A DNA stretch of 64,000 nt from a virus, in the IMG/VR virus record IMGVR_UViG_3300037246_000452, positions 25,219-89,218 of that record. The stretch is one strand, 5' to 3'. Of this stretch, positions 6,086 to 64,000 are shown piece by piece. How positions within the stretch are numbered: the first letter of the stretch is position 1; every line of letters starts with the position of its first letter. Below the pieces are notes generated by a model. The model did no database searches and had not been told where the DNA came from. It saw only the letters and a list, made by a program, of their open reading frames with translations. The translations under genes were made by a program, and so were the position numbers.

Positions 6086-6508
6086 TTATTTGCAGTTAAT
6101 TGCAATTAATAATCTCTTAATAAGACCTTCCTTCCATAGAGTACATTCGGAGTGGTACTCAGGTATAGGACTACCCTCTAGGTATCGATCTAGTGGCGTA
6201 TCATAGTTTGGATAGCCACTGCATACCTCAGGCCTGTCCTTGTGGATGCTACACCCCTCCTTGCTTCTCCTGAGACAAGTAAAGTACGCTGTTGGCCCAG
6301 TAGCCTCTCGGGCTGTCAGTAGGTAAGGATTTAATCTCTGGGCTGTCTCCTCAGGTATCATCACCCAGTTTTCTTGAATGAATAACATATCCCCACTTGC
6401 ACCATTATTCTTATCCATAAACCATCGAGCTTGATGCTCCCCGGTGAGGCGGATTACCTCGCAGCATTTGGTACACCTCTTACCTTCTATTATACAATGT
6501 TCACTCAT
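6086..6508 (-). CDS. YkgJ/CxxCxxCC-family cysteine-cluster protein
   Basis: C..RCTKCC ... CL....GCSIH.DRPEVCSGYP. Confidence 0.75.
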   Translation of the reverse strand: MSEHCIIEGKRCTKCCEVIRLTGEHQARWFMDKNNGASGDMLFIQENWVMIPEETAQRLNPYLLTAREATGPTAYFTCLRRSKEGCSIHKDRPEVCSGYPNYDTPLDRYLEGSPIPEYHSECTLWKEGLIKRLLIAINCK

Positions 6509-8626: not shown

Positions 8627-8800
8627 GGATTAAATGCAGTTAATTGCAATCTGGTACATTTTTATTGTACTGGTATATCTCCATCACTCCACGGTCCATC
8701 GTCATCATCGTTACCTTTAAACCATACCATTCCTGCTATAAATAATGCTATCAGTACTGCGTGTAATACCCTTGTCTGTAGTTCGTCCATACCTTCCTCC

Positions 8801-9019
8801 TTAGTTATAATACTCGTTCCATGTCCTTGCCTTAATACGCCTCACGACTACTTTACAAAAATCACAGTTAGCTTCTGCGGGGCATAAGTCTGCCGGGTCT
8901 ACATGTACTATCTTAAAACCCGCTGTCTTACAAATATTACCATGAGTTACCTCAACCACTTTGGCCTCTTTCTTATCGGGGTCATACGTTACCAAGTTCA
9001 CCTTCCTTCTCATACCCAT
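8801..9019 (-). CDS. small Cys-containing protein, paralog of 63335..63559 (start revised to 9019)
   Basis: SD AGGAGG then ATG at 9019; shares RRKVNLVTYDP and VHVDPADLCPAEANCDFCK with 63335..63559. Confidence 0.75.
   Translation of the reverse strand: MGMRRKVNLVTYDPDKKEAKVVEVTHGNICKTAGFKIVHVDPADLCPAEANCDFCKVVVRRIKARTWNEYYN
8851..8910. repeat. 60-bp perfect direct repeat, copy 1 (copy 2 at 63391-63450)
   Basis: ctttacaaaaatcacagttagcttctgcggggcataagtctgccgggtctacatgtacta is identical at both loci. Confidence 0.95.
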
Positions 9020-9048
9020 AACTTCCTCCTTATGCAATTAAGTGCAAC

Positions 9049-11010
9049 CTATTCATCCTCACCCTCTTCCATGTCCTCTACTTCCGCTGCTTTCATGTTG
9101 TCCTTCTTAACCATCTCTATTACTGAGTTCGGTATCTGAGATGGGTTTAGCTTATGCCTTATCCATAGCTCAGTCCTCATCGTAAGTCCATATACAACAC
9201 CGGCCACAGCATCGGCCACATCGTTACTACCGTTTGGTGGATGATCTATCTTTCCGGTCTTAGGGTCTTTCTCAAGAGAGACAAATTCCTTCCGTAGCTT
9301 ATCATGCCGGGGGATTATTAACCTTCTATCATAGAGTGCTGTCTTCGTCATATAGTAAGGCGCTGACGGTACTGAATCAATCGATTGCTGGCCGGTTATG
9401 AATCCCTTCTGTCTGAGTATTTGCTGAGAGTCCCTAGACTGGTACTGGTCAAAGCTTACCCACTGGATATTGAGTCCGAGTTGTTTCAGTTTATACAGCA
9501 TAGCCCTGATCTTTCCGAATATAATCTCACCGTTCTTTGGTGGACTTACCTCCAGAGTGCCATCCAAATGTATCTCTGGCAGTATCTCTTCAACATCCCC
9601 TCGATCTATATTCACAAACCTCTTTACATGGCCTATAGCTATACCCGCACTGTCTCCTGTCACTGCAAGGTCGATATGCACCCAGCGAGGCTCATCAGGT
9701 CTTACAAACATATCTGGGAGCAGACTTAGCTTGACGTTCTTGAAGTCCACCTTCTCATTATTAAAGATGGAATATATCTCATCTGACATGGCCTCACTAA
9801 CAGCTTCAGTCTCCAGTATAAACGGATGCCTTGCAAGGGTGGATACTCCCGCAATCTCTCGAAGGGCATCAATAATGTCTGTCTCAAATTCGGGCTTGAA
9901 CTCTATCGGAATATCCTTGACTAACTCCGCGTCATCCTCATGTACTTCCTCCCCTTCCTCAAGCATTCTGGGCTTTCTGGCATCATCTCCTATAAATACT
10001 CTAAACCATATCCCTAGAAAGTCATCTGGCTTAATATCCCACACTCTTTTATCATAAACGTATATCTGGGATGTCCCCTTCTCAGCTACTTCCTTATCCC
10101 TCTCCGCCTCTTTTATGTCTGTGAACTGTCCCGGGTACCTCTTCGATGAGACTAGACAAAGGATGCCGGGGAGTTTACCTGCCTTCAGGAAACGTGACTT
10201 CCTTCTACGTGCAATGGAGTTATACACTGCTACGGCCTGATCATATGTTCCTCCATCAACACTTGCCTTCGAGTTCTCCGTTACTGACATGTAGTTCAGT
10301 TCATCTATCAGTCCCCCGATAACATTCTGTCCAATGGCTGCTGAGTCCGAACCTGATACAGGCTTGACTATAATTCTATTCGGAAACCTCATCTCTGACT
10401 CCAGATTCCTGTCGAAGGGAAACTCATTCTGGAAATAAGGACTCTTCTGAATCATATCCTTGAACCTCATGAAGTCAACCCCCTTAGCCAGTGCTGCCGT
10501 GATACTCTGGAATATAAACTCAATCTCGTGCGATGAGTCCAGCCCAAACTCTGCGTGGGGGTTCCTCATACAAGACAACAGGTACACCTGATAAGCATTG
10601 AGGTATATTGCTATTGTAGTTTTAGCTGACCCGATTCCGCCAGTAAGTACTACCTCTATATACTTACCCGAACTCATCTCCTCAATATAATCCATTACAA
10701 TAGGATACACTTCGTTACCTTTGTTCAGAAAGTAAGGGTCTTCTACAAACTGCCTTACTGATACAGGTTGCGTTCTCCATTTGATGTTCTTCTTCATATG
10801 AGCAAACGTATTATTCCCTGCATGTAGGCCGGCCAGATCAAGTACAACACTCTTGAAGAACTTCTCCCTCAGTGCTGGCTTGCCTATCTCCATGCCCACT
10901 TTATATACAGCCTCACCTCTATCTCCCCCTAACGCTTCTATCAGGAATTCCTTTGCATGGGTCTCACTTACTTTCTTAGTTAACATCGATTGGCTCCTCC
11001 AACTTCCCAT
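9049..11010 (-). CDS. terL: terminase large subunit
   Basis: Walker A-like GGIGSAKT, Walker B GLIDE, motif III LVSS, RNase H-like nuclease HIDLA...FDQYQS...DHP..GSNDVADA. Confidence 0.9.
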   Translation of the reverse strand: MGSWRSQSMLTKKVSETHAKEFLIEALGGDRGEAVYKVGMEIGKPALREKFFKSVVLDLAGLHAGNNTFAHMKKNIKWRTQPVSVRQFVEDPYFLNKGNEVYPIVMDYIEEMSSGKYIEVVLTGGIGSAKTTIAIYLNAYQVYLLSCMRNPHAEFGLDSSHEIEFIFQSITAALAKGVDFMRFKDMIQKSPYFQNEFPFDRNLESEMRFPNRIIVKPVSGSDSAAIGQNVIGGLIDELNYMSVTENSKASVDGGTYDQAVAVYNSIARRRKSRFLKAGKLPGILCLVSSKRYPGQFTDIKEAERDKEVAEKGTSQIYVYDKRVWDIKPDDFLGIWFRVFIGDDARKPRMLEEGEEVHEDDAELVKDIPIEFKPEFETDIIDALREIAGVSTLARHPFILETEAVSEAMSDEIYSIFNNEKVDFKNVKLSLLPDMFVRPDEPRWVHIDLAVTGDSAGIAIGHVKRFVNIDRGDVEEILPEIHLDGTLEVSPPKNGEIIFGKIRAMLYKLKQLGLNIQWVSFDQYQSRDSQQILRQKGFITGQQSIDSVPSAPYYMTKTALYDRRLIIPRHDKLRKEFVSLEKDPKTGKIDHPPNGSNDVADAVAGVVYGLTMRTELWIRHKLNPSQIPNSVIEMVKKDNMKAAEVEDMEEGEDE

Positions 11011-11623
11011 ACTTAAAAATTTCTATAACTTTCTGTGTAGCTATGGCCAGTTGTTCATTATCTTCCTTTGACTCCACATGGAGCTGTTGTACTTCGGTGT
11101 CCGTCATAGAGAACGACCCTATCAGATGTTTCTGTATTGGCGCCACCTTCTTAAGTAATCCCAGATCAAACTGGAGGTCCGAAAGCTGATTTAGTAAGTC
11201 CTTCATAAGACCCATCTCTTTCCGCATAGCATCAAATAGCAGGGGGGCTCCGTGTTCCTTATTGTACAGCTTCTGCATCCTCATCATCTGCATCTCTACA
11301 AGCTCCGTGAGAGCCGTATGGGCATCTATCCTCTTATCTACAGGTGTGAAGATGGTCAGGGTGTCTACCTTGTCCTCTGTGCCCTTTGTGTCGCTTGGAA
11401 TCAGTACCTTACTATGCAAGTGAGGTGTGATTTTATCTTTCTTATACCTGACAAGCTGCTTCTGGAGTGTCCCCGGCTTCATATCAGTCAGTAACTTCCA
11501 CTCTTCTTGTATCTTCGCTACTACTTTGGGCGCACTGGTGTTTTTGATAAGCATAGACTCGATGATATCTAGCTTAGCCTGCCCCAGCCCTGTGAGTGTC
11601 TTGTACTGCCTTACTACAGCCAT
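10976..11623 (-). CDS. putative terminase small subunit
   Basis: Immediately upstream of and overlapping terL; helical 215-aa protein; positional inference only. Confidence 0.45.
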   Translation of the reverse strand: MAVVRQYKTLTGLGQAKLDIIESMLIKNTSAPKVVAKIQEEWKLLTDMKPGTLQKQLVRYKKDKITPHLHSKVLIPSDTKGTEDKVDTLTIFTPVDKRIDAHTALTELVEMQMMRMQKLYNKEHGAPLLFDAMRKEMGLMKDLLNQLSDLQFDLGLLKKVAPIQKHLIGSFSMTDTEVQQLHVESKEDNEQLAIATQKVIEIFKYGKLEEPIDVN

Positions 11624-11624
11624 C

Positions 11625-12458
11625 TTATCCTCCCATATTCTCTATCGTAGGGTCTACTCCATCCGCCAGCCCAGATATATCTACTTCTTTGGTTACTGAG
11701 AGCAACCTCTCCGACAGAGTGGGGTCATTTGCAATTAGTTGCACAGCTGCGGATAGTATATCATCTATTGACCTACTGTTAGCCTTACACATCTGACCTA
11801 AAGTCCTGAAGCCCTCCCTATCTTTAGCCTTCATCCTTAACCAGATATTCTCCTGCCCGTTGAAGTCAAAAATCATGTAGCCATAGTCCAGTGTATCTCC
11901 GAAGGTACTGAATAGGTGGTTCAACACTTTGCTCAGGTCATCTATAGTCTTGATCTCTTTTGCTGCCTGAGTAAACTCGGCTTGCATCTCCTTGGGAAGA
12001 CTCTTCTTGGTCTGTTTAATCAGTTTAGCAAACTCTGCATCATCTGCAAAACCGAAGGCATCCTGTAATAAGTCTTCTTCATACTTATCCGACACTGACT
12101 GATACATATTCATGAACTTCTCAGGGTCAAGCTTACCCCTGATCATATTCATCCTTACAACTTGAAAGGTCTCAGCATCCCCATCAAAGTTCGGGTCTGT
12201 AATCACCGTGCAGGGCACTGTCTCAAAGTCCAGATACTTAGCGGCCTCCCACCTGTGATGACCACCCACAATACGGTATGTTCCCTCATCAAGAGGTCTT
12301 ACAAAGATGGGGTCTACTATCCCTACCTGTGCATAGTTATCACAGAGCAGATCGAAAGATCGGGCATCCATCTTGTTCGGGTTGTTCTCATTCGGAACCA
12401 ACTGGTCTATAGGTAAGTCCACCCGCTTATGACTCTTTGTTAATTCTTTGGCATCCAT
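11625..12458 (-). CDS. ParB/Srx-like N-terminal domain protein
   Basis: L.PNENNPN...G.VDPIFVRP....YRIVGGHHRWEAAK.L....VP. Confidence 0.85.
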   Translation of the reverse strand: MDAKELTKSHKRVDLPIDQLVPNENNPNKMDARSFDLLCDNYAQVGIVDPIFVRPLDEGTYRIVGGHHRWEAAKYLDFETVPCTVITDPNFDGDAETFQVVRMNMIRGKLDPEKFMNMYQSVSDKYEEDLLQDAFGFADDAEFAKLIKQTKKSLPKEMQAEFTQAAKEIKTIDDLSKVLNHLFSTFGDTLDYGYMIFDFNGQENIWLRMKAKDREGFRTLGQMCKANSRSIDDILSAAVQLIANDPTLSERLLSVTKEVDISGLADGVDPTIENMGG

Positions 12459-12459
12459 C

Positions 12460-13110
12460 TTAAACCTCCCTCAAAAAGTTTAATGTATATCCTTCTGCAT
12501 ACTTATGGCCACACTTGGCCCCAATCACTTTATGTACTGCTTCTATGTTTTCCATCGATCTTGGATGAACGCCACTCCTTGCCTCCCTCCGGTACTGCTC
12601 TATTGCAATTAATTTCACCATCAAGTCATTAGCAGTCATAGGGATGAAATAATTGGCACTGGTCGGTATTCCGTCAAACGCATGTGCTTCTAATATCCTG
12701 ACTACTCCCTGTAGGTTAGCAGGTCTTAGTGCTATCTTGCAAGCATGATTTAAAAATTTATGATCTTGGTTCATATCTGAGGCCGAGGGTATTACTACTT
12801 CGTGGGGACTAAAGGTACTTAATACTCCCTCTATCCTCTCCAGTATCTTATAGTAGCCTACTTGTGCCGGCTCTCCCTCGGTCAGGTTCATACATCTATG
12901 CAGCTGATAGCCCAGCTTCTCTTTAGCTTGCATAAAATCCAAGCACTGCTCTGCGTATGATTCATCCACGGTCTCCTTGCCATACTCATACACCCTACCG
13001 TACACTGTGAGTACAAATACTTCCCCGCCCTCACGAATTCTTCTAACAACTAAAGCCCCCGTTGAGAGGGCTTCGTCGTCCATATGTGCTGCTATTATTA
13101 AAGTTCTCAT
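12460..13110 (-). CDS. PIG-L/LmbE family deacetylase
   Basis: AAHMDDEALSTG metal motif, NQDH motif, C-terminal YAEGY. Confidence 0.85.
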   Translation of the reverse strand: MRTLIIAAHMDDEALSTGALVVRRIREGGEVFVLTVYGRVYEYGKETVDESYAEQCLDFMQAKEKLGYQLHRCMNLTEGEPAQVGYYKILERIEGVLSTFSPHEVVIPSASDMNQDHKFLNHACKIALRPANLQGVVRILEAHAFDGIPTSANYFIPMTANDLMVKLIAIEQYRREARSGVHPRSMENIEAVHKVIGAKCGHKYAEGYTLNFLREV

Positions 13111-13321
13111 CTTTACTCCCTATTGCTTGTTTAAGCTTGGACAAGTCTTCTGTGCTTTGTTATTTGTTGATACCTGTAGGCATAGCCAGCATTAACAAAT
13201 TCCTTTTCCGTGCCGGTAAAGTTTTTAGATTTAGAACTAAAGACCTGTTCGTACTGGAAAGGACTTACTTCTTTGTATCCTATGCTCTCTACGTCATCTG
13301 GTAATTGTGTCATTTTATCTC

Positions 13322-14419
13322 CTACTTAAAAGAGACCACCCATCTCCGTTTGTCGTTCAACCTCTTAATCTCCTTCTCTACTATGTCCCGGACATCTGCG
13401 AGTGACTCATTTGGAACTCCTCCCCACAGCATTAGTACCTCATCCTGCCTGTCCTTCAAATAAGAGAGGTGAGGTATTACCAACCTTCTGTCTACCTGTC
13501 CCCCCTCCACTACAAATACTGTTGACCCCATGGCATATACTGCCTTCTCTGAGGGTATTGCATCTATCACCTCATACTCTTTTCTGAGGCTGGTATAAAA
13601 TGCCTTCAGTGCGAACTTACCTTGCCTGTTGTGCATGTCCAGTGCTGCTCCCGACAATCCCTTCAGTCTTATCTCTATGGGCATATCATCTGGCTCTACC
13701 TCCCAACCACCCATGGTATTGTGTGACAACTCAAGGATGGGGGCCAGTGCTAAATGCATTGAGTCTACTGCTGATAACGTACACTGCTTAATTGCATGAT
13801 GATATTCCTCTGGCAACCTTTCACAGTATGCATCTATCACTTGCGTTAATCCGGGTATGTCCCTCTTCCTTCTCTGCTCGGTCTTCCTTGGTACAAATCC
13901 TGCCAGTGTACATATGGCAAGGTATCTCTCTTCCAGTGTCTCCGTACCATTTCCTTCCAGTGCCCAGCCTACCAACTCCTCAGTGGACATCTGTGAATAC
14001 CTGTTGTACTGAACTATCCCTTCTGTGGAGTAATCAACTGACACTGACAACTCACAACATATTCTGCTCTTGGGCGACTTACATGCTTCTTCTATGACGT
14101 GTGCAGTTAATGTCAAATCCCCCAAAGACATTCTTACCTTCTTATTCTTTGAGAAGGCCACCACCTGCCATACCAACTCTGGGTTACCTATGCTGATATC
14201 TTCTATGGTGATGATTGCCAACGATCTCCACAAATACGTGGGGTCATCGTTGTACAAGTACCCAGCACACTTTAATGCTGTTTCAACATCACCTCTCCGT
14301 ATAGCTTTCTGTAATCCACTCCTTACCAGCCACTTATTATCTGGATGAACCAATGCCCTTGGTACTATGGGTTTAACTCCTACCAACTGTTCCTGTACTT
14401 TGTGTAACACTTTCAACAT
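13322..14419 (-). CDS. protein resembling the RarA/MgsA C-terminal domain, no AAA domain
   Basis: SGLQKAIRRGD...DPTYLWRSLAIITIEDISIGNP resembles RarA S..HKS.RGSD..DP..I.RRL...A.ED.G.ADP; also ALDMH motif. Confidence 0.5.
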   Translation of the reverse strand: MLKVLHKVQEQLVGVKPIVPRALVHPDNKWLVRSGLQKAIRRGDVETALKCAGYLYNDDPTYLWRSLAIITIEDISIGNPELVWQVVAFSKNKKVRMSLGDLTLTAHVIEEACKSPKSRICCELSVSVDYSTEGIVQYNRYSQMSTEELVGWALEGNGTETLEERYLAICTLAGFVPRKTEQRRKRDIPGLTQVIDAYCERLPEEYHHAIKQCTLSAVDSMHLALAPILELSHNTMGGWEVEPDDMPIEIRLKGLSGAALDMHNRQGKFALKAFYTSLRKEYEVIDAIPSEKAVYAMGSTVFVVEGGQVDRRLVIPHLSYLKDRQDEVLMLWGGVPNESLADVRDIVEKEIKRLNDKRRWVVSFK

Positions 14420-20071: not shown

Positions 20072-20222
20072 GTAAATATTGCAGTTAATTGCAAATTACC
20101 CTAGACTATCTATCCATGCTGCAAAGGCATAACCGGCAATAAGCATTATAGGCACTGTAAATATATATACCCAAGTGTTATTACTCAACCATGCAACAAG
20201 CTTCTCCGCCCTTTCTTCACAC

Positions 20223-43526: not shown

Positions 43527-43563
43527 AATAATACCTCCTCATGCAATTAATTGCAACAACAAT

Positions 43564-50168: not shown

Positions 50169-53100
50169 CTATAATAAGTATCCATCTAATTGTTTACGTC
50201 CACGCCCTACTATAACGATCTCCTCAGGATTGTTGAATTGCCCTTTTCCATTCCCGAAGCTACCAAAGTTCTTAACGTACTTGGTTACACCGTTCTTAAT
50301 GTAAAAGCCGTTGATTCGATTATTCTTATGATCAACTGAATAAAAATTTGGCCTGTAGTACTCTACTGTTCTCAGGGTAGTCGTAACGCCTGCGGTATTG
50401 GTCACAGTCAATCTCACTAGGTATGTCCCAGAAGAGCTATACACATGGATTGGATTACTCTCATTTGAATACGTCCCATCCCCAAAGTCCCAGAAATACG
50501 TATTAGTCAGTAGGGTTGCATACGGTATATCTGCTACGGTATCCCCTGCATAAACAGTACTTAAAGTCATATTCAAGTCATCTGTAATATCAGCGATACC
50601 ATACTCATCATATCCTGTCCTCTGATAAAGATCAAGGCCACTCTGGGAGCCTCCACTTCTCACAGTTCTTAATGTTGCAGTAGTATTGTCTTGAATCGAT
50701 TCAACTACGTACTCCTCTCCCCCTGCAAGTATAGTCATCAACGGGGAAAGCTCCGTAAGAAATAGCGTCCCAGTTCCTACAAGCTGATCACTGCTAGTAG
50801 TCAGTGCAACAACTCCAGTCCTTACGGTGTAATGCGGAACCCTTATCCTGTCACTGGTGGACAACTCAGAAGTAAAAAGTGTTCCAGTTCCTACTACCAC
50901 CACACTATCATTAATTAAAGCCAGTGTTCCAGTTGCCCCCGTGTAATTAGGCAACTGAGTATTCACAAAGCTTATGGCACCTGCCGGGTCATTCTCAATG
51001 GCAACATAAAATGGAAGTCCAGACTCATCCTCCTCCACATAAGGCTTCGACAACATTAATTTGGTATCACTGATAATACCAAGTACCTTGTATGGTACTC
51101 CATTAATTACAAGACTCATACCCTTTTGTAGGTCCGTGGTAAAGGTCGTTCCAATTCCCACCACAAGAGTACTACCTTGAATAACACTTATAGTCCCGCC
51201 CAAAGCCGTAGACTGACCTAGAGTTGACACACTGGCTGTTACCCCTAACTCGGTCACCCCTAACGTCTTTGTTACAGTCTTGCCATCCTCTGTGGCCTCT
51301 CCTACTGGATATGATAGGGTTGCATTGAAGTCATCTTCTACAGACTCTACCGTATAGAGAAGATCATCAATTGTTATCTCCGTCCCCTGTGTCAGCTCCG
51401 ATACAAATGAGGTTCCTGTTCCTACTATCTGATCACTACCATTGGTTACTGCAACACTTCCAGATACATCTACCTGAATAGTTCTGCCTCCTGTGTATAC
51501 TGTTGTCAAGGTCATCTGCGTTGCGCTTTGTATCGCCTCTACATTGTATTTTACCCCACCAATTACAATCTCGCTCCCGATCTCTAACTGACTTTGAAAG
51601 TCAGTATTGGAGCCTATTACTATATTACTGCCTGCTGCTAACTGCAACGTCCCTATCAGTATAGTGGTTCCAACTCCAGCTGCTACCTCAAAAGCTGCTG
51701 TCTGTATGTCTTCTTCATCGGCAGTTGCTTTCACTGTAATAGTCTGCATGGTAGTTACACTTTCATTATTAACAACTATTGTCACCCGCACAGTATACGT
51801 CCCTGCCTCTGTAAACGTAAAACTAGGACTTGCATCCGTTGACTGAGTTCCAGCTGCCTGTAGGCTGAAGGCTTCTCCGGTGGTATCTACTCCCGCATAT
51901 ACACTGGTTAGGGTCATGTGAGTATCATCTTCAATACTCTCAATTACATAGGTTAATCCGGCTACCTTTATCATCTGACCTACAGTAAATTCCGAGGTAA
52001 ACAGCGTGGAGTCTCCTACCACTTGATCACTTGCCTGCTCCAAGGTCAGGGTTCCGGTCTTGGTGGTTACTGCCCCATCACCAAAATCCCACAAAGCCTC
52101 TCCATCTAAGAGGTCTGACCCATTACCAAAATTAATCGTGGCAGGCACAACCCCATTGGTACTCTCTTCTGGGTAGTTGGTTGCAACAACTCCCCCTACA
52201 ATAGACTCGCCCCCAAACGTCTCAAGTAGCGTAAGGTTAGTGTCATCTTCTATTTCAGCAATCAGGTACAGTGTCCCTTCTAGGTCTAGTAGCATACCCA
52301 CTATCAACTCCGTAGTAAACTTTGTCCCAACACCAACTACATCCTTGCTGCTAGTGGTGATACTCATAGTCCCTGTGAGGACTTTAGTCTTCTGGTACAG
52401 TATCAAGCCCGAATCGGTATCTCCGGGGTAATTTGCAACTAATTGCAAACTCAGATTTGTAGCTATGGAATCTATCACCCCTTCTTCTCCTCCGATCACT
52501 ACAGTCTCACCAACATTCAATTCGGTAGTGAATAAAGTGCCTACTCCTACAACTGACTTTAAGCCATTGGTTACTGATACTGTCCCAGTCATTTCTTTTA
52601 ATCCAGCCAGTACAGGAGCGTTATCACTTGTATTAGGTACAAGGTCAACCGTGTAGTCTGCCCCTATAATTACTATTTGGCTACTGCTGTTAATCCCGTT
52701 TGTTCCTGTGAACTTGGCAGTAGTCTTGAAGTTATCCAGCCCTGAATCTGTGGTATCTCCGTACTTATTCATCAAGGTCATATGCGTATTATCTGCAATG
52801 GTCGATATAATGTACTTAATACCTTCGATCACAATAGCCCCACCCTCTACGTAATCAGTGGTGAAAGTAGTCGTGGTGCCTACAACATCCTTGCTATTCT
52901 GCGTCACCGCAATAGTACCTGTCAGTTTCTCGGTCATACGTATCCCAATCTGCTCACTATGGTTCTGCCCCTTATATACTGTAGCCAAAGTCATATGTGT
53001 GTCGTCAGTAATAGTATCAATGACATACTCAAGCCCTGCAATGATAAGAGTCTCCCCTACTGCCAGTTCCGTAGTAAATGAGGTTCCTGCGCCTACTACT

Positions 53101-54842
53101 GTGTCCTCCCCATAAGTGACTTCAAGCGTACCTGTCATCTTCGGCATAGTGTAGGTAGTTAGGGTTGTTACATATGTGCCTTCATTTGTATATTCGTGAG
53201 TCGGGTTTGCTTCCAAAGATATAGTGCCGTCCCCAAAGTCCCACACTGCCACCTCAAATGTTCCAGAGGTTGTACTGGTAAAATTCACTGCAATAGCATG
53301 GGTAGGAATAACATCTTCTGCATCCACCCCAGCATAATTAGTGGATAAAACTATGTGCGTGTCATCAGTAATGGTATCAATGGTATACGCCACCCCCTCC
53401 AATACGATGGTTTTTCCTTCCTCAAATTCTGTAGTAAAATTCGTACCAAATCCTACAATATTTGCGCTACCGTTGGTTACAGTCACCAACCCTGAGCCGG
53501 CCACAATATTCTTTCCAGATGCCACCTTAACTGCTTTCAGTCCTGAGTCGGTGGTGCCTGCATACGTTGCAGTTAATTTCAAACTCGTGTCACTGATCAC
53601 CTCTTCAATCACATATATAACTCCAGCTATCAGTATTGAATCTCCTAAAGTACATTGCGTGAGGAAAGACGTTCCGTCCCCTGCCACCATGTAGCTCCCA
53701 TTTACCACACTAATAGTCCCAGTCAACTCCACGATGTCATCTATTGTCAGCACCTTATACATGAAGAGTCCTGAATCAGTGCCCCCAGCATAATTAGTAG
53801 TCAAAGTCATATTCGTATCGTCTGCAATAGTATCAATGGTGTATACTTTCTCCCCTATGATAATATACCCTCCTTCAACGTATTCTGTAGTGAAGGCTGT
53901 ATCGGTACCCACCAATGCGGCACTCCCATTTGTAGCTGCAGCTGTACCACTGCCTTTAGCTACAGTCTTGTCAATGCTAATCTCTGCATTAAACGAGGCT
54001 ACTGGGGGTGCTGGTATTGAACATGTAACCGTCAAGTCTGTTGGGTCTGCTGAAACTCCACCTATCCCCTGGTATACCTTAAAGGGCCCTATAAAAGAAC
54101 TAGGCAAATACACCTCACCGTTAACTGCTACCGTCCCTCCACGAAATTGTCCTGAGTAGGCTATAGATTGCACGTAGGCATATGGGCTTGTCTTATTAAA
54201 AATCCTTGTCTCGGATGTTGATGTCCTGATATACAGATACCCCTGATCTACCCCTATAGAAGATACGGAGTCTAGCGTATTAATAGTGGCTACATACACA
54301 TAGGTACTTTGATCGTAGATATATATATTATCGTCCGTAGTATTAGAAATATAGATATAGTCTCCATCTAACGCTATATTTCTAGCTCCATTAGCCGCCC
54401 CTATCGGTGTAAGATTGGTAATAAAGGCAAACGTAGATTTATTATAAATAGCTATTCTGTTATTAGTATTATCCGTTATAAATATTCTTGTATCATCTAC
54501 TTCGATTGTCTCTGGGAAATTGACTGATGGACTAAACTCATCTACCCTCAATCCAGTAGAAATACTATATCTCTGAAGTATATCCCCCCTTAAAACGTAA
54601 ATATAAGTATCATCTACAGCAAAACCATTAATACCTGTTCCTGTAGGGTTACTAAGCGTCAGGCCTCCTTCAGGAGTTCCATCCATTTGATAATAGTGAA
54701 TAGCATAGGGTGAAGATGGAACACCACCTCCATTTATTCCCCAATAGATTCTATCCGCTGTAACAGCTACGCCACCATTAGGGTCAATCTCTTGGGCTAT
54801 AATCCCATGCACGAACTCCCTTTTATAATCAAATAACGCCAT
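50169..54842 (-). CDS. large tail/adhesion protein: beta-propeller, 3 PKD domains, 13 repeats of about 70 aa
   Basis: WDFGDG three times; 13 GT..V..GS..V.G.GT.F.TE modules; propeller blades at both termini. Confidence 0.8.
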   Translation of the reverse strand: MALFDYKREFVHGIIAQEIDPNGGVAVTADRIYWGINGGGVPSSPYAIHYYQMDGTPEGGLTLSNPTGTGINGFAVDDTYIYVLRGDILQRYSISTGLRVDEFSPSVNFPETIEVDDTRIFITDNTNNRIAIYNKSTFAFITNLTPIGAANGARNIALDGDYIYISNTTDDNIYIYDQSTYVYVATINTLDSVSSIGVDQGYLYIRTSTSETRIFNKTSPYAYVQSIAYSGQFRGGTVAVNGEVYLPSSFIGPFKVYQGIGGVSADPTDLTVTCSIPAPPVASFNAEISIDKTVAKGSGTAAATNGSAALVGTDTAFTTEYVEGGYIIIGEKVYTIDTIADDTNMTLTTNYAGGTDSGLFMYKVLTIDDIVELTGTISVVNGSYMVAGDGTSFLTQCTLGDSILIAGVIYVIEEVISDTSLKLTATYAGTTDSGLKAVKVASGKNIVAGSGLVTVTNGSANIVGFGTNFTTEFEEGKTIVLEGVAYTIDTITDDTHIVLSTNYAGVDAEDVIPTHAIAVNFTSTTSGTFEVAVWDFGDGTISLEANPTHEYTNEGTYVTTLTTYTMPKMTGTLEVTYGEDTVVGAGTSFTTELAVGETLIIAGLEYVIDTITDDTHMTLATVYKGQNHSEQIGIRMTEKLTGTIAVTQNSKDVVGTTTTFTTDYVEGGAIVIEGIKYIISTIADNTHMTLMNKYGDTTDSGLDNFKTTAKFTGTNGINSSSQIVIIGADYTVDLVPNTSDNAPVLAGLKEMTGTVSVTNGLKSVVGVGTLFTTELNVGETVVIGGEEGVIDSIATNLSLQLVANYPGDTDSGLILYQKTKVLTGTMSITTSSKDVVGVGTKFTTELIVGMLLDLEGTLYLIAEIEDDTNLTLLETFGGESIVGGVVATNYPEESTNGVVPATINFGNGSDLLDGEALWDFGDGAVTTKTGTLTLEQASDQVVGDSTLFTSEFTVGQMIKVAGLTYVIESIEDDTHMTLTSVYAGVDTTGEAFSLQAAGTQSTDASPSFTFTEAGTYTVRVTIVVNNESVTTMQTITVKATADEEDIQTAAFEVAAGVGTTILIGTLQLAAGSNIVIGSNTDFQSQLEIGSEIVIGGVKYNVEAIQSATQMTLTTVYTGGRTIQVDVSGSVAVTNGSDQIVGTGTSFVSELTQGTEITIDDLLYTVESVEDDFNATLSYPVGEATEDGKTVTKTLGVTELGVTASVSTLGQSTALGGTISVIQGSTLVVGIGTTFTTDLQKGMSLVINGVPYKVLGIISDTKLMLSKPYVEEDESGLPFYVAIENDPAGAISFVNTQLPNYTGATGTLALINDSVVVVGTGTLFTSELSTSDRIRVPHYTVRTGVVALTTSSDQLVGTGTLFLTELSPLMTILAGGEEYVVESIQDNTTATLRTVRSGGSQSGLDLYQRTGYDEYGIADITDDLNMTLSTVYAGDTVADIPYATLLTNTYFWDFGDGTYSNESNPIHVYSSSGTYLVRLTVTNTAGVTTTLRTVEYYRPNFYSVDHKNNRINGFYIKNGVTKYVKNFGSFGNGKGQFNNPEEIVIVGRGRKQLDGYLL

Positions 54843-61584: not shown

Positions 61585-62024
61585 GGCACTTGACCCTGAC
61601 CCGTCAGCTGATTAATCTTATTCGTTGCCTTGTAGAACTCAATCGGATATGTCCTCGCGAATCTAGCTGCCATACCCTCATCAAATTTAGGTTCAACGCT
61701 ACCTAACACCAGTGTCTCTATCCGAATTACAATCTCATTATGGGTATCTCCATCTTCCACGCCCCCCAACATCGCCTTAAATCCCTTAATGTTCTCAGAC
61801 TTTGACTTACTTGCTATGGCTTCAATCATTGCCATTAGCTGATTCGTATTTGATACTGCGTCCTGTGCTATTGCGAACTCGTTCCCTGTTAGTCCCCTGA
61901 CTATGAGTTTAGCATCTTCCTTACTGCCCTCGAACCATTCTGCCATATCAGGAACCAGAACCTCCCCCTCGCGGGGGGAGAATTCTGAGCTCATGAATTT
62001 GATGGCGTCAAACTTTTTAGCCAT
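61542..62024 (-). CDS. tail assembly chaperone (gpG-like)
   Basis: Between tail tube and TMP; ends just after a slippery site. Confidence 0.75.
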   Translation of the reverse strand: MAKKFDAIKFMSSEFSPREGEVLVPDMAEWFEGSKEDAKLIVRGLTGNEFAIAQDAVSNTNQLMAMIEAIASKSKSENIKGFKAMLGGVEDGDTHNEIVIRIETLVLGSVEPKFDEGMAARFARTYPIEFYKATNKINQLTGQGQVPGKRKSSGKKVKSS

Positions 62025-63019
62025 TATGTGAGAACCTCAGTACCTTCTTCACTGGCAGATATCGTGCATTCCGCATTGAGGACTCCATCAGCCGGCCATG
62101 ATCTTGAAATACCGAACTTACCTTGGACAGGCAAATGCGGAGTATCATACTTATTCGGGAAGAACTTAAACCACAAGAGCATTCCCTTAAGCTTAACAAC
62201 TGTGTCCGATAGGCCGTCCTTCAACTTGGCATTGAACCCACCCTGACCAATAGACTCAGATGAGGCTCCTACTGCCTTACCATATATCTGCTCAGAAGAA
62301 ACTGAGTGTGTGACTTCAGGCGCCTTGAAGTTGGTTACATTCACAAGGTCGGTGAAGATAGGGTCATAAACCTTACCAAAGACCTGCTTAGGTATAACGC
62401 CTGTGTGGATTTTAGAAAGTGCAATGTCAAATACAACATTACCGTTGGCCATATCCTCACTGAATGTTGGATAATCGTACCTTTCCTGATGCTGATTAGG
62501 GGTATCAAATATCTCATCGGCGCTGATAGGAGCTGCCACATTACCTTTCGTGATAACTTGCGCTATCTCTATGGAGTCTGTCGGGATAAGAGGTGGTCCA
62601 CCATTTCCGTCTCTTGTAGTGCTGAGAGATACACCCTCTGTACCCGTTACAACCGCTATGGCCTGAGCGTTGTCTACAGTAATACTATTTACCATGTAGT
62701 AATCAGCCGTGGATGCCCTTGTTATCCCATCACCTGTACTTGCCCCTACAGTCTCTTTTACTCCCGCCTGATAGGCTGTAGCAGCTGCCACATCTACCTG
62801 ATCATTGGTGAGTCCAACCTCAGGTATTACTGCTCCACCTGTAATAAGACCATCAGGCCTAATATCAGGTTCCTTTCCTGCCACATTAGACAGTAGGGAT
62901 GCGGCTGTTTCAAATGTCAGCTGATCTCCTGAATCACTGAGAGCTGCCATCGCCTTAAGCGTCTGACCATTCTCGATTTGGATTTTGGCTTTTGAGCCAG
63001 TATTTATTTGTCCACTCAT
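62024..63019 (-). CDS. major tail (tube) protein
   Basis: 331 aa, upstream of chaperone and TMP; P E..HSVSS.Q.YG..WFKFFP. Confidence 0.65.
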   Translation of the reverse strand: MSGQINTGSKAKIQIENGQTLKAMAALSDSGDQLTFETAASLLSNVAGKEPDIRPDGLITGGAVIPEVGLTNDQVDVAAATAYQAGVKETVGASTGDGITRASTADYYMVNSITVDNAQAIAVVTGTEGVSLSTTRDGNGGPPLIPTDSIEIAQVITKGNVAAPISADEIFDTPNQHQERYDYPTFSEDMANGNVVFDIALSKIHTGVIPKQVFGKVYDPIFTDLVNVTNFKAPEVTHSVSSEQIYGKAVGASSESIGQGGFNAKLKDGLSDTVVKLKGMLLWFKFFPNKYDTPHLPVQGKFGISRSWPADGVLNAECTISASEEGTEVLT

Positions 63020-63075
63020 TTTCTTATCCCCCTTTTGAAATTAATTTTAAACTAACCGTCTTCAACCCCACCCTC

Positions 63076-63324
63076 TTAAGCAACCATCTTCATACTGCTG
63101 TTCTTAACTCCTGCTATATCCCTGAGGGCATTAATAATGTCACGATCAAAATCTAATCGGAATTCCACTGGAACTTGTATAACCAGCCCTGTGTCTCTTA
63201 GAAGTGCATACTCCTTTTTGTTAAGTATTCTTGGCTGCCTAGCCTCATCACCTATAAATACACTAAACCGATCTCCTAAGGAGCCATCGGGTTTAGTGTT
63301 CCATACTCTCGCACCAACCTCCAT
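63076..63324 (-). CDS. stand-alone homolog of a TerL internal segment
   Basis: 37 of 68 residues identical, no gaps, to TerL residues about 322-389; SD GAGGAGG. Confidence 0.8.
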   Translation of the reverse strand: MEVGARVWNTKPDGSLGDRFSVFIGDEARQPRILNKKEYALLRDTGLVIQVPVEFRLDFDRDIINALRDIAGVKNSSMKMVA

Positions 63325-63334
63325 AATCTCCTCC

Positions 63335-63559
63335 TCAGTACCCTTTATAGTATTCGTTCAAGGTTCTACTCCTCACCCTACGCATCACTCCTTTACAAAA
63401 ATCACAGTTAGCTTCTGCGGGGCATAAGTCTGCCGGGTCTACATGTACTAACATAAAGCCCATCGCCTTATCAAAAGTACCATGATGCACCTCGATCACC
63501 CCGGCCTCTTTCTTAATCGGGTCATACGTCACCAAGTTAACCTTCCTTCTCGTATCCAT
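63335..63559 (-). CDS. paralog of 8801..9019
   Basis: Shared protein motifs, 60 identical bp, and shared SD context AGGAGGAAGTTATG. Confidence 0.8.
   Translation of the reverse strand: MDTRRKVNLVTYDPIKKEAGVIEVHHGTFDKAMGFMLVHVDPADLCPAEANCDFCKGVMRRVRSRTLNEYYKGY
63391..63450. repeat. 60-bp perfect direct repeat, copy 2
   Basis: Identical to 8851-8910. Confidence 0.95.
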
Positions 63560-64000
63560 AACTTCCTCCTATACATTTGAAATTAATTTCAAATTACTTA
63601 GATTTAGATTCCTTGGTCTCAATGACCCCCTCTTCCTTTAATACCTTCAGGAACGCTGTGGTCACTAGGTAACTCTTACCCTTGGTAAACGTCTGCTTAC
63701 CTTTACCCTCGCCCTGTGGCTCCCCACAGTAATTCTTTTTAAACTTTGCTGTCAGTGATACTCCCATAATACCCTCCCTTATTTATTCTTCTGTTACATT
63801 ATCCAACGGAACATATATCTTATACCGTTGTACGTAGGCAAGCACCTCAATAAAATGTGCTTTGTCTCCCTTCTTGGCCGGCTTCTTCTTAATTGCCAAA
63901 TTCACCGGCTGCTCTAAAACGAAGCCCCACTCAATATAACCTGATGCTTCCCGGGGAGTCCTTATAGCTCTTCGTACCTTATCCAAGATTATAGTCGTCT

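Follow-up and report, generated by a model that had tools for sequence, protein, structure and literature searches.

The systems closest to the locus described here are the PeSL (promoter-early stem-loop) cassettes of T4-like phages, reportedly treated by Comeau et al. in 2014. One published account (Arbiol et al., 2010; PMC2839356) holds that recombination between small regulatory PeSL repeats inserts, deletes and circularizes cassettes of ORFans in T4-like phages. The locus under study resembles them in that short conserved repeats of a regulatory type, lying between genes, bracket small non-essential ORFs of unknown function, and in that the indels between close relatives break in the repeats; besides, neighbouring repeats can recombine into small circles, by which the gene order would also be permuted. 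However, the repeat found here is a 16-nt AT-rich palindrome that sits directly ahead of a Shine-Dalgarno sequence or else precedes a -35 box, and not a promoter-plus-terminator unit, i.e., it does not consist of a sigma-70 early promoter and a terminator stem-loop; the genome hosting the cassette is an 89-kb siphovirus-like one and not that of a T4-like myovirus; and no minicircle was observed.

We consider, with moderate confidence, that the interval discussed below is part of an accessory cassette specific to this strain, acquired by recombination at repeats that lie between genes, and that the identical core of the duplicated gene it carries is a gene-conversion tract. Such a locus would be a natural case of a small-gene cassette being gained or lost with a short intergenic repeat as the breakpoint, here in a phage that is not T4-like; the site is visible both with and without its insert, and so is the paralogous source locus.

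Genome Context and the Duplicated Gene

The window, i.e., the whole stretch of DNA analyzed here, comprises the final 64,000 bases of an 89,218-bp IMG/VR virus record. The first 127 nt of the record are the same as its last 127 nt, which indicates a circular assembly; the phage is an 89-kb, circularly assembled siphophage (siphovirus-like genome) from marine sediment. Nearly all long ORFs of the record lie on the minus strand. In minus-strand order, according to PHROG matches, the genes of DNA polymerase, portal, head-morphogenesis protein and protease are followed by those of a 384-aa protein, a 316-aa virion structural protein and a Neck1-like protein (PHROG) and then, across the record ends, by the small ORFs p71 and p57 (the latter at 63594..63767, minus strand). 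Next comes the interval of interest with two minus-strand ORFs, cysB (63335..63559), encoding a 74-aa His/Cys3 small protein and preceded by a strong Shine-Dalgarno sequence, and an 82-aa ORF referred to below as mini-TerL (63076..63324). On its 3' side lie the gene of a 331-aa structural protein (62024..63019, minus strand; phrog_30644, function unknown, E 2e-91), a 160-aa ORF, a 49-aa ORF and the tape-measure gene. The 331-aa protein is, from position only, the probable major tail/tube protein, and the cassette sits between the neck-region gene p57 and this probable tail-tube gene. Further along the window, positions 50169-54842 (minus strand) encode a 1557-aa tail-fibre-like protein with many internal repeats (families D4 and D7; 10 stretches of phrog_1980).

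The gene of the resident large terminase, TerL (9049..11010, minus strand; 653 aa; PHROG phrog_2, E 3e-9), is 54 kb distant from the interval. The protein is 53-57% identical to the annotated TerL of Stenotrophomonas and Vibrio phages; it was not found in 5 records related through the tail gene, and neither a single-protein scan of viral contigs nor a PDB sequence search returned a match to it. The terL gene is preceded by a ParB-like nuclease gene and a 215-aa ORF, which may encode the small terminase, and the same annotated terL neighbourhood is found in Stenotrophomonas phage Summit and Vibrio phage V-YDF132 (TerL 53-54% identical). The terL gene, 54 kb away from the head and tail genes, belongs to a conserved block (9049-14419 of the window) of glycosyltransferase, ParB-like nuclease, 215-aa ORF and TerL genes, common to Delepquintavirus and SIO-2-like Vibrio phages.

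Directly after terL lies cysA (8801..9019, minus strand; 72 aa), a paralog of cysB with 52 of 71 amino acids identical (E 1e-39). At the nucleotide level the two genes form a direct repeat (8805-9030 and 63345-63570) of 226 nt with 81% identity and a spacing of 54,540, which is the only long direct repeat within the window; the whole 89,218-bp record holds two copies each of the cys gene and of the TerL segment, and no more. Both cys genes are headed by AGGAGGAAGTT-ATG and have a palindrome just upstream (9032-9047 and 63577-63592, respectively). The observations of the sequence-only reading that a paralog of the post-terL gene sits before the mini-terminase, in reversed order, and that both copies share their Shine-Dalgarno context and upstream palindrome are thus borne out at both loci. 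Its arithmetic is also right in that recombination between the direct repeats would excise about 54.5 kb; as to the recombinant form, none was seen, and such an excision would split essential genes between two circles.

The two copies are identical over exactly 60 nt, 8851..8910 in cysA and 63391..63450 in cysB, as had been reported, while outside this run identity falls to 71% over 153 nt. In the flanks of the run dN is 0.25 and dS 0.94 between cysA and cysB (dN/dS about 0.27), which argues that both paralogs evolved as coding sequence.

A 43-aa ORF with a coupled Shine-Dalgarno sequence and start (8665-8793, minus strand) comes after cysA, just as mini-TerL comes after cysB; its product has a hydrophobic centre and an acidic tail and no match in PHROG or Pfam.

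A Repeat-Bounded Cassette and Its Empty Site

The 16-nt AT-rich palindrome TTGMANTTAANTKCAA is present in 21 copies in the window against 0.08 expected; the 89-kb genome has 29, of which a crude gene call places 19 between genes. Typical copies follow a stop codon by a few bases and have the next start 10-20 nt further on; in the alternative arrangement the start is about 80-90 nt away, with a consensus promoter in between. The genome-wide palindrome is likely to be a binding site of a phage regulator or an RNA hairpin. Palindromes of the TTGCA(G/A)TTAATTGCAA type occur window-wide (e.g., 529-544, 6090-6105, 8634-8649, 20079-20094, 43541-43556), directly upstream of a TTGACA-17-TATAAT/TATACT promoter or immediately before a Shine-Dalgarno sequence. 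At cysA, the palindrome is ATGCAATTAAGTGCAA (9032..9047), between the terL stop and the cysA Shine-Dalgarno sequence.

Two copies of this genome-wide intergenic repeat flank the pair of small ORFs. The upstream one, TTGAAATTAATTTCAA (63577..63592), has no mismatches to TTGMANTTAANTKCAA and falls between p57 and cysB, 1 nt after the stop of the former and 17 nt ahead of the start of the latter; the downstream one, TTGAAATTAATTTTAA (63035..63050), has one mismatch to the motif and is followed, after 15 nt, by the start of the gene of the 331-aa tail protein. Together with neighbouring bases they make a 21-nt direct repeat with 2 mismatches, and the palindrome type TTGAAATTAATTT[T/C]AA is represented solely by these two copies. 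Neither a promoter nor a terminator was found on the minus strand at the flanking palindromes, the only match being a weak one on the plus strand at 63577-63604.

Four sequencing runs hold part of the stretch, and these were examined as contigs. In a run from another study (X4), one contig passes directly from 63033 to 63576, so that 542 nt are missing, and 13 nt at the junction fit both sides; this contig is 151 nt long, has a depth of 2 and carries 7 mismatches in 150 nt, i.e., it is about 95% identical to the record. The missing part, 63034..63575 on the minus strand, is the 542-bp insertion cassette, consisting of cysB, mini-TerL and one copy of the repeat. Presence or absence of the cassette in close relatives, with breakpoints in the repeats, is thus seen on this one 151-nt contig of depth 2. 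Another run (X2) provides a single loose end after 63042, whose own translation resembles the C-terminus of a p57 of the kind found at locus L008. At that locus, where the tail protein is 54% identical, a p57-like 69-aa gene directly precedes a 330-aa tail gene; the resemblance of the C-terminal half of p57 to the product of this 69-aa gene is visible by eye and is undetected by tblastn. Neither cys nor mini-TerL was found within 3 kb in any of 14 loci related through the tail gene. Since the relatives lack the cassette, the empty site is ancestral and the filled site strain-specific, and the cysB/mini-TerL cassette is dispensable. This weighs against the view of the sequence-only reading that 63076-63559 may be a packaging-related module, the pair being absent both from a relative of about 95% identity and from more distant ones.

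We infer the route, the donor and the expression of the cassette as follows. The material of the cassette would have come from a terL-cys region, probably belonging to a related phage that has not been sampled, mini-TerL deriving from a fragment of a diverged large-terminase gene (the part that separates the ATPase motifs from the nuclease domain). The reversed gene order would be accounted for if a circle excised from that region had been opened again at the palindrome in front of cys, and entry into the lineage would have taken place by recombination at the repeated palindrome, in a PeSL-like manner. To get from the terL-cys region to cys plus TerL 322-389, at least two further breakpoints or deletions are needed, which we have not reconstructed. 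The last step would be a short gene conversion between cysA and cysB, leaving 60 nt identical. No circular joint, minicircle or insertion intermediate was seen in the contigs of the runs, and no donor genome of the cassette was found. The duplication puts a second cys gene, with a ribosome-binding site of its own, into the late structural operon, and cysB is now probably expressed with the late structural genes; no RNA runs are listed among those containing the stretch.

The Small His/Cys3 Protein

Neither cysA nor cysB nor mini-TerL matches any PHROG or Pfam profile. A tblastn search with cysB against 50,697 phage records gave just two chance-level rows (E 6 and 7), and a word-index search of 5.8 billion clusters returned cysB and cysA alone. 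An exhaustive HMMER search of 1.84 billion representatives gave 6 hits for the Cys protein and added three distant relatives (P0006, P0007 and P0008) of 71-82 aa, encoded on contigs of 927-1706 nt. Two further hits, P0004 and P0005, were dropped as spurious; these are long, highly repetitive sequences that match the Cys protein in 8-10 stretches and look like translated tandem repeats. Matches proposed as genomic context of P0006-P0008, one locus each on viral contigs (L022) and metagenome contigs (L023), were also rejected, as they turned out to be chance matches, out of frame or antisense, inside other genes. The family is therefore almost an orphan, with three distant relatives among the 1.84 billion representatives.

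In the alignment of five sequences, K17, H26, G34, V38, C46, C52, C55, R61 and R65 are invariant, and all of them are kept in cysB. All 5 sequences retain the putative metal ligands H26, C46, C52 and C55, and the whole set of invariant residues suggests one His/Cys3 metal site and a basic C-terminal helix. The AlphaFold2 model of the protein (pLDDT 81.6) has three strands and a C-terminal helix. From these features we infer that cysA and cysB encode proteins with a single zinc site and a role in binding of nucleic acid or protein. Searches with the model brought no fold match reaching Z 5 (best Foldseek E 0.83 in PDB and 0.23 in BFVD; best VIA Z 3.2), the search of PDB sequences with the Cys profile gave chance-level rows only, and the best score in the ESM Atlas, 0.84, serves as a lead only. 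A tiny, nearly orphan His/Cys3 protein family without a known fold is hereby defined.

HNH or His-Me finger endonucleases are encoded beside terminase genes, for example in HK97-like phages, and cysA is likewise a small Cys/His protein encoded next to terL. However, this class is characterized by a His-Asn-His catalytic pattern on a beta-beta-alpha fold and by a profile match, and cysA and cysB have one His invariant in the 5 sequences, no His-Asn-His pattern and no match to a Pfam or PHROG profile.

The Terminase-Derived ORF

Residues 6-73 of mini-TerL align without gaps to residues 322-389 of the resident TerL, 37 of 68 being identical (54%; E 4e-22). In TerL, this segment comes after what we take to be the Walker A (GSAKT, around 127-131), Walker B (LIDE, around 234-237) and SSK motifs and before the PHROG-matched nuclease part (409-616). 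The ORF resembles large terminases of the Delepquintavirus and Vibrio SIO-2-like kind in its ungapped alignment and in keeping most of the family-conserved residues, but covers only about 68 of 653 residues, and neither the Walker A and B motifs nor the RNase H-like nuclease domain that define a large terminase are found in the 82-aa ORF. Its Shine-Dalgarno sequence, GAGGAGGAG, overlaps the cysB stop; both cysB and mini-TerL are intact ORFs with strong Shine-Dalgarno sequences and a coupled stop and start.

In local BLAST alignments mini-TerL is 54% identical to the resident TerL, against 39-56% for 59 TerLs from IMG/VR, and over the full alignment the respective values are 48% and at most 52% for any other TerL. 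The resident TerL is therefore not a closer relative of it than foreign TerLs are. Of 17 positions conserved at 90% or more in the TerL family it keeps 15, and at variable positions it matches the resident TerL in 24 cases out of 65. Identity between mini-TerL and TerL is 46% at third and 79% at second codon positions, with dN 0.33, dS 1.57 and dN/dS about 0.2, which indicates that most of the divergence arose under coding constraint. This constraint would fit a recent copy from an unsampled TerL lineage and continued selection alike.

Each of 72 phage records and 59 IMG/VR loci had a single match to the TerL segment, which lay inside terL every time, and the other 3 of the 62 loci had none, so a free-standing copy is unusual. 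In the literature, searched with limited sets of terms, no free-standing internal TerL fragment was found; the ORF documents a rare case of this kind. Nor is the segment an exon or extein unit, a suggestion that was rejected because the insertions of relatives lie elsewhere, near residues 128-130 and 595. Related terL genes are interrupted by insertions of about 0.9 kb near residues 128-130, at the P-loop (L080, 2501-5071; L085, 2501-5125), or near residue 595, at a nuclease motif (L030, 1086-3587; L074, 2501-5026); these interruptions look intein- or intron-like, and the terL of the window has none.

The AlphaFold2 model of mini-TerL has the order beta-beta-alpha-beta-alpha-alpha, with a pLDDT of 70 overall and 78-86 in the core. 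The fold search matched no solved domain (best Foldseek E 1.8, best Z 2.2), so that the structural position of TerL 322-389 is taken from the order of the motifs alone. The PDB sequence search gave chance-level rows only, and the word-index search returned mini-TerL itself and nothing else. For longer proteins the word-index search gave no score, and its power there is low, since the resident TerL itself was missed.

Most likely, mini-TerL is a hitch-hiking fragment devoid of terminase activity; an intact, well-translated ORF that keeps the conserved residues would fit a selected function equally well.

Possible Role of the Cassette

The two ORFs of the cassette might be non-functional leftovers of illegitimate recombination on the way to being lost. 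Relatives do without the cassette, the Cys family is nearly orphan, mini-TerL lacks every catalytic motif, and its coding signals are indistinguishable from those expected of a recent origin. Nevertheless, we regard such an inert scar as unlikely, as both frames are open and provided with good ribosome-binding sites, the flanks of the cys genes show the low dN/dS given above, and cysB keeps every family-invariant residue. The cysB gene is probably functional.

More specific roles have been ascribed to the pair by its proximity to terminase sequence. According to the sequence-only reading, the Cys gene travels with terminase sequence at both loci, its product may be a partner of TerL, and the pair would form a packaging-related module. 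In a fuller form of this idea, the Cys protein would bind TerL 322-389 and mini-TerL, expressed late, would act as a partner, decoy or regulator of the motor, be it the phage's own or a competitor's. Both cys copies do adjoin TerL-derived sequence in this genome, both ORFs of the cassette are intact and translationally coupled, with strong Shine-Dalgarno sequences, and mini-TerL retains nearly all of the family-conserved residues and a rather confidently modelled core. However, the association with terL does not hold for the family. We examined 62 IMG/VR loci whose TerL shares 34-60% identity with the resident protein, taking at most 2.5 kb on each side (some loci end early downstream); relatives of cysA, cysB, P0006, P0007 or P0008 lay within about 2.5 kb of terL in 0 of the 62 (tblastn, E<=0.1). 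The gene following terL is thyX in phage Summit and an unrelated 80-aa ORF in V-YDF132. The lack of association with terL elsewhere is what the sequence-only reading had itself named as counting against it, and the claim that the gene accompanies terL as a family has to be given up. A second, free-standing TerL segment was likewise seen in none of the 72 phage records and none of the 59 IMG/VR loci that match it, out of 62 searched, and the cassette is missing from the relative of about 95% identity. As for the structure, the fragment has no match among solved structures that would make it an autonomous domain, and its conserved residues are also to be expected in a recent copy of a foreign TerL. 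A packaging module is, on balance, decidedly improbable, and the understanding of packaging stays as it is unless binding of the Cys protein to TerL is shown.

A bolder version of this idea, in which the palindrome-bounded unit is mobile, the His/Cys3 protein recognizes the TerL segment, and the mini-TerL mimic either adjusts the motor of the phage itself or poisons the motor of a relative infecting the same cell, seems to us very unlikely; if true, it would mean that a terminase-decoy accessory module is carried on a shuffling cassette.

Origin of the Identical Tract

Returning to the accessory cassette with its conversion tract, the 60-nt block encodes VHVDPADLCPAEANCDFCK in both copies. A run of 60 nt or more appeared in about 1e-5 of 200,000 permutations of the mismatches. 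Among degenerate codons for the same residue, synonymous differences affect 12 of 32 outside the run and 0 of 19 inside it (P about 1.3e-4). The locus thus shares with ectopic gene conversion between dispersed paralogs both a tract of identity running far beyond expectation and flanks that differ at synonymous sites as well; the event itself is deduced from the sequences, and neither a recombination intermediate nor a third allele was seen. The identity is best explained by a later, short gene conversion between cysA and cysB, and as such it documents a short ectopic conversion tract in a phage.

The sequence-only reading had left a choice between recent gene conversion and a function at the DNA level, of which the former stands. 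The run, which is far longer than chance allows, could also be kept by a function of the nucleotides themselves, for instance as a structured RNA, as a packaging signal or as the binding site of a protein, and a weak terminator-like hairpin (CGCAG...CTGTG with a T-run) is found inside both copies. This explanation is, however, highly improbable, given that the folding energy of the block is no better than that of shuffled sequences (z from -0.75 to +0.07), that Rfam has no match for it, that it coincides with the most conserved residues of the protein and that it occurs solely inside the two paralogs.

Verification of the Assembly

The probable source run (X1) was used for comparison, its Logan contigs (k=31) being an independent assembly. 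Among these contigs there is a 60-nt record located exactly on 63391-63450 with a depth of 30.7, and the contigs flanking it have depths of 13.8-14.6; one of the flanking contigs carries a cysA-type flank and continues into the region of the terL stop. A 60-nt node at double depth means that the block is a true two-copy repeat, and the identity reported by the sequence-only reading is not an assembly artefact. That the identical block or the second copy should be a chimera, as might be feared of a metagenome assembly with a 127-nt end overlap and of a k=31 graph that alone cannot phase the four flanks, is barely conceivable, because the 60-nt node recurs in the independent assembly, twice as deep as every contig around it, because a 34,551-nt X1 contig has the exact length of the arc from the cysA core through the record ends to the cysB core, and because the assembled pairing keeps p57 beside the tail gene, as in the relatives and in the X4 contig. 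The length of the 34,551-nt contig fits the end of the record joined to its start minus the 127-nt overlap, which supports a circular or circularly permuted genome.
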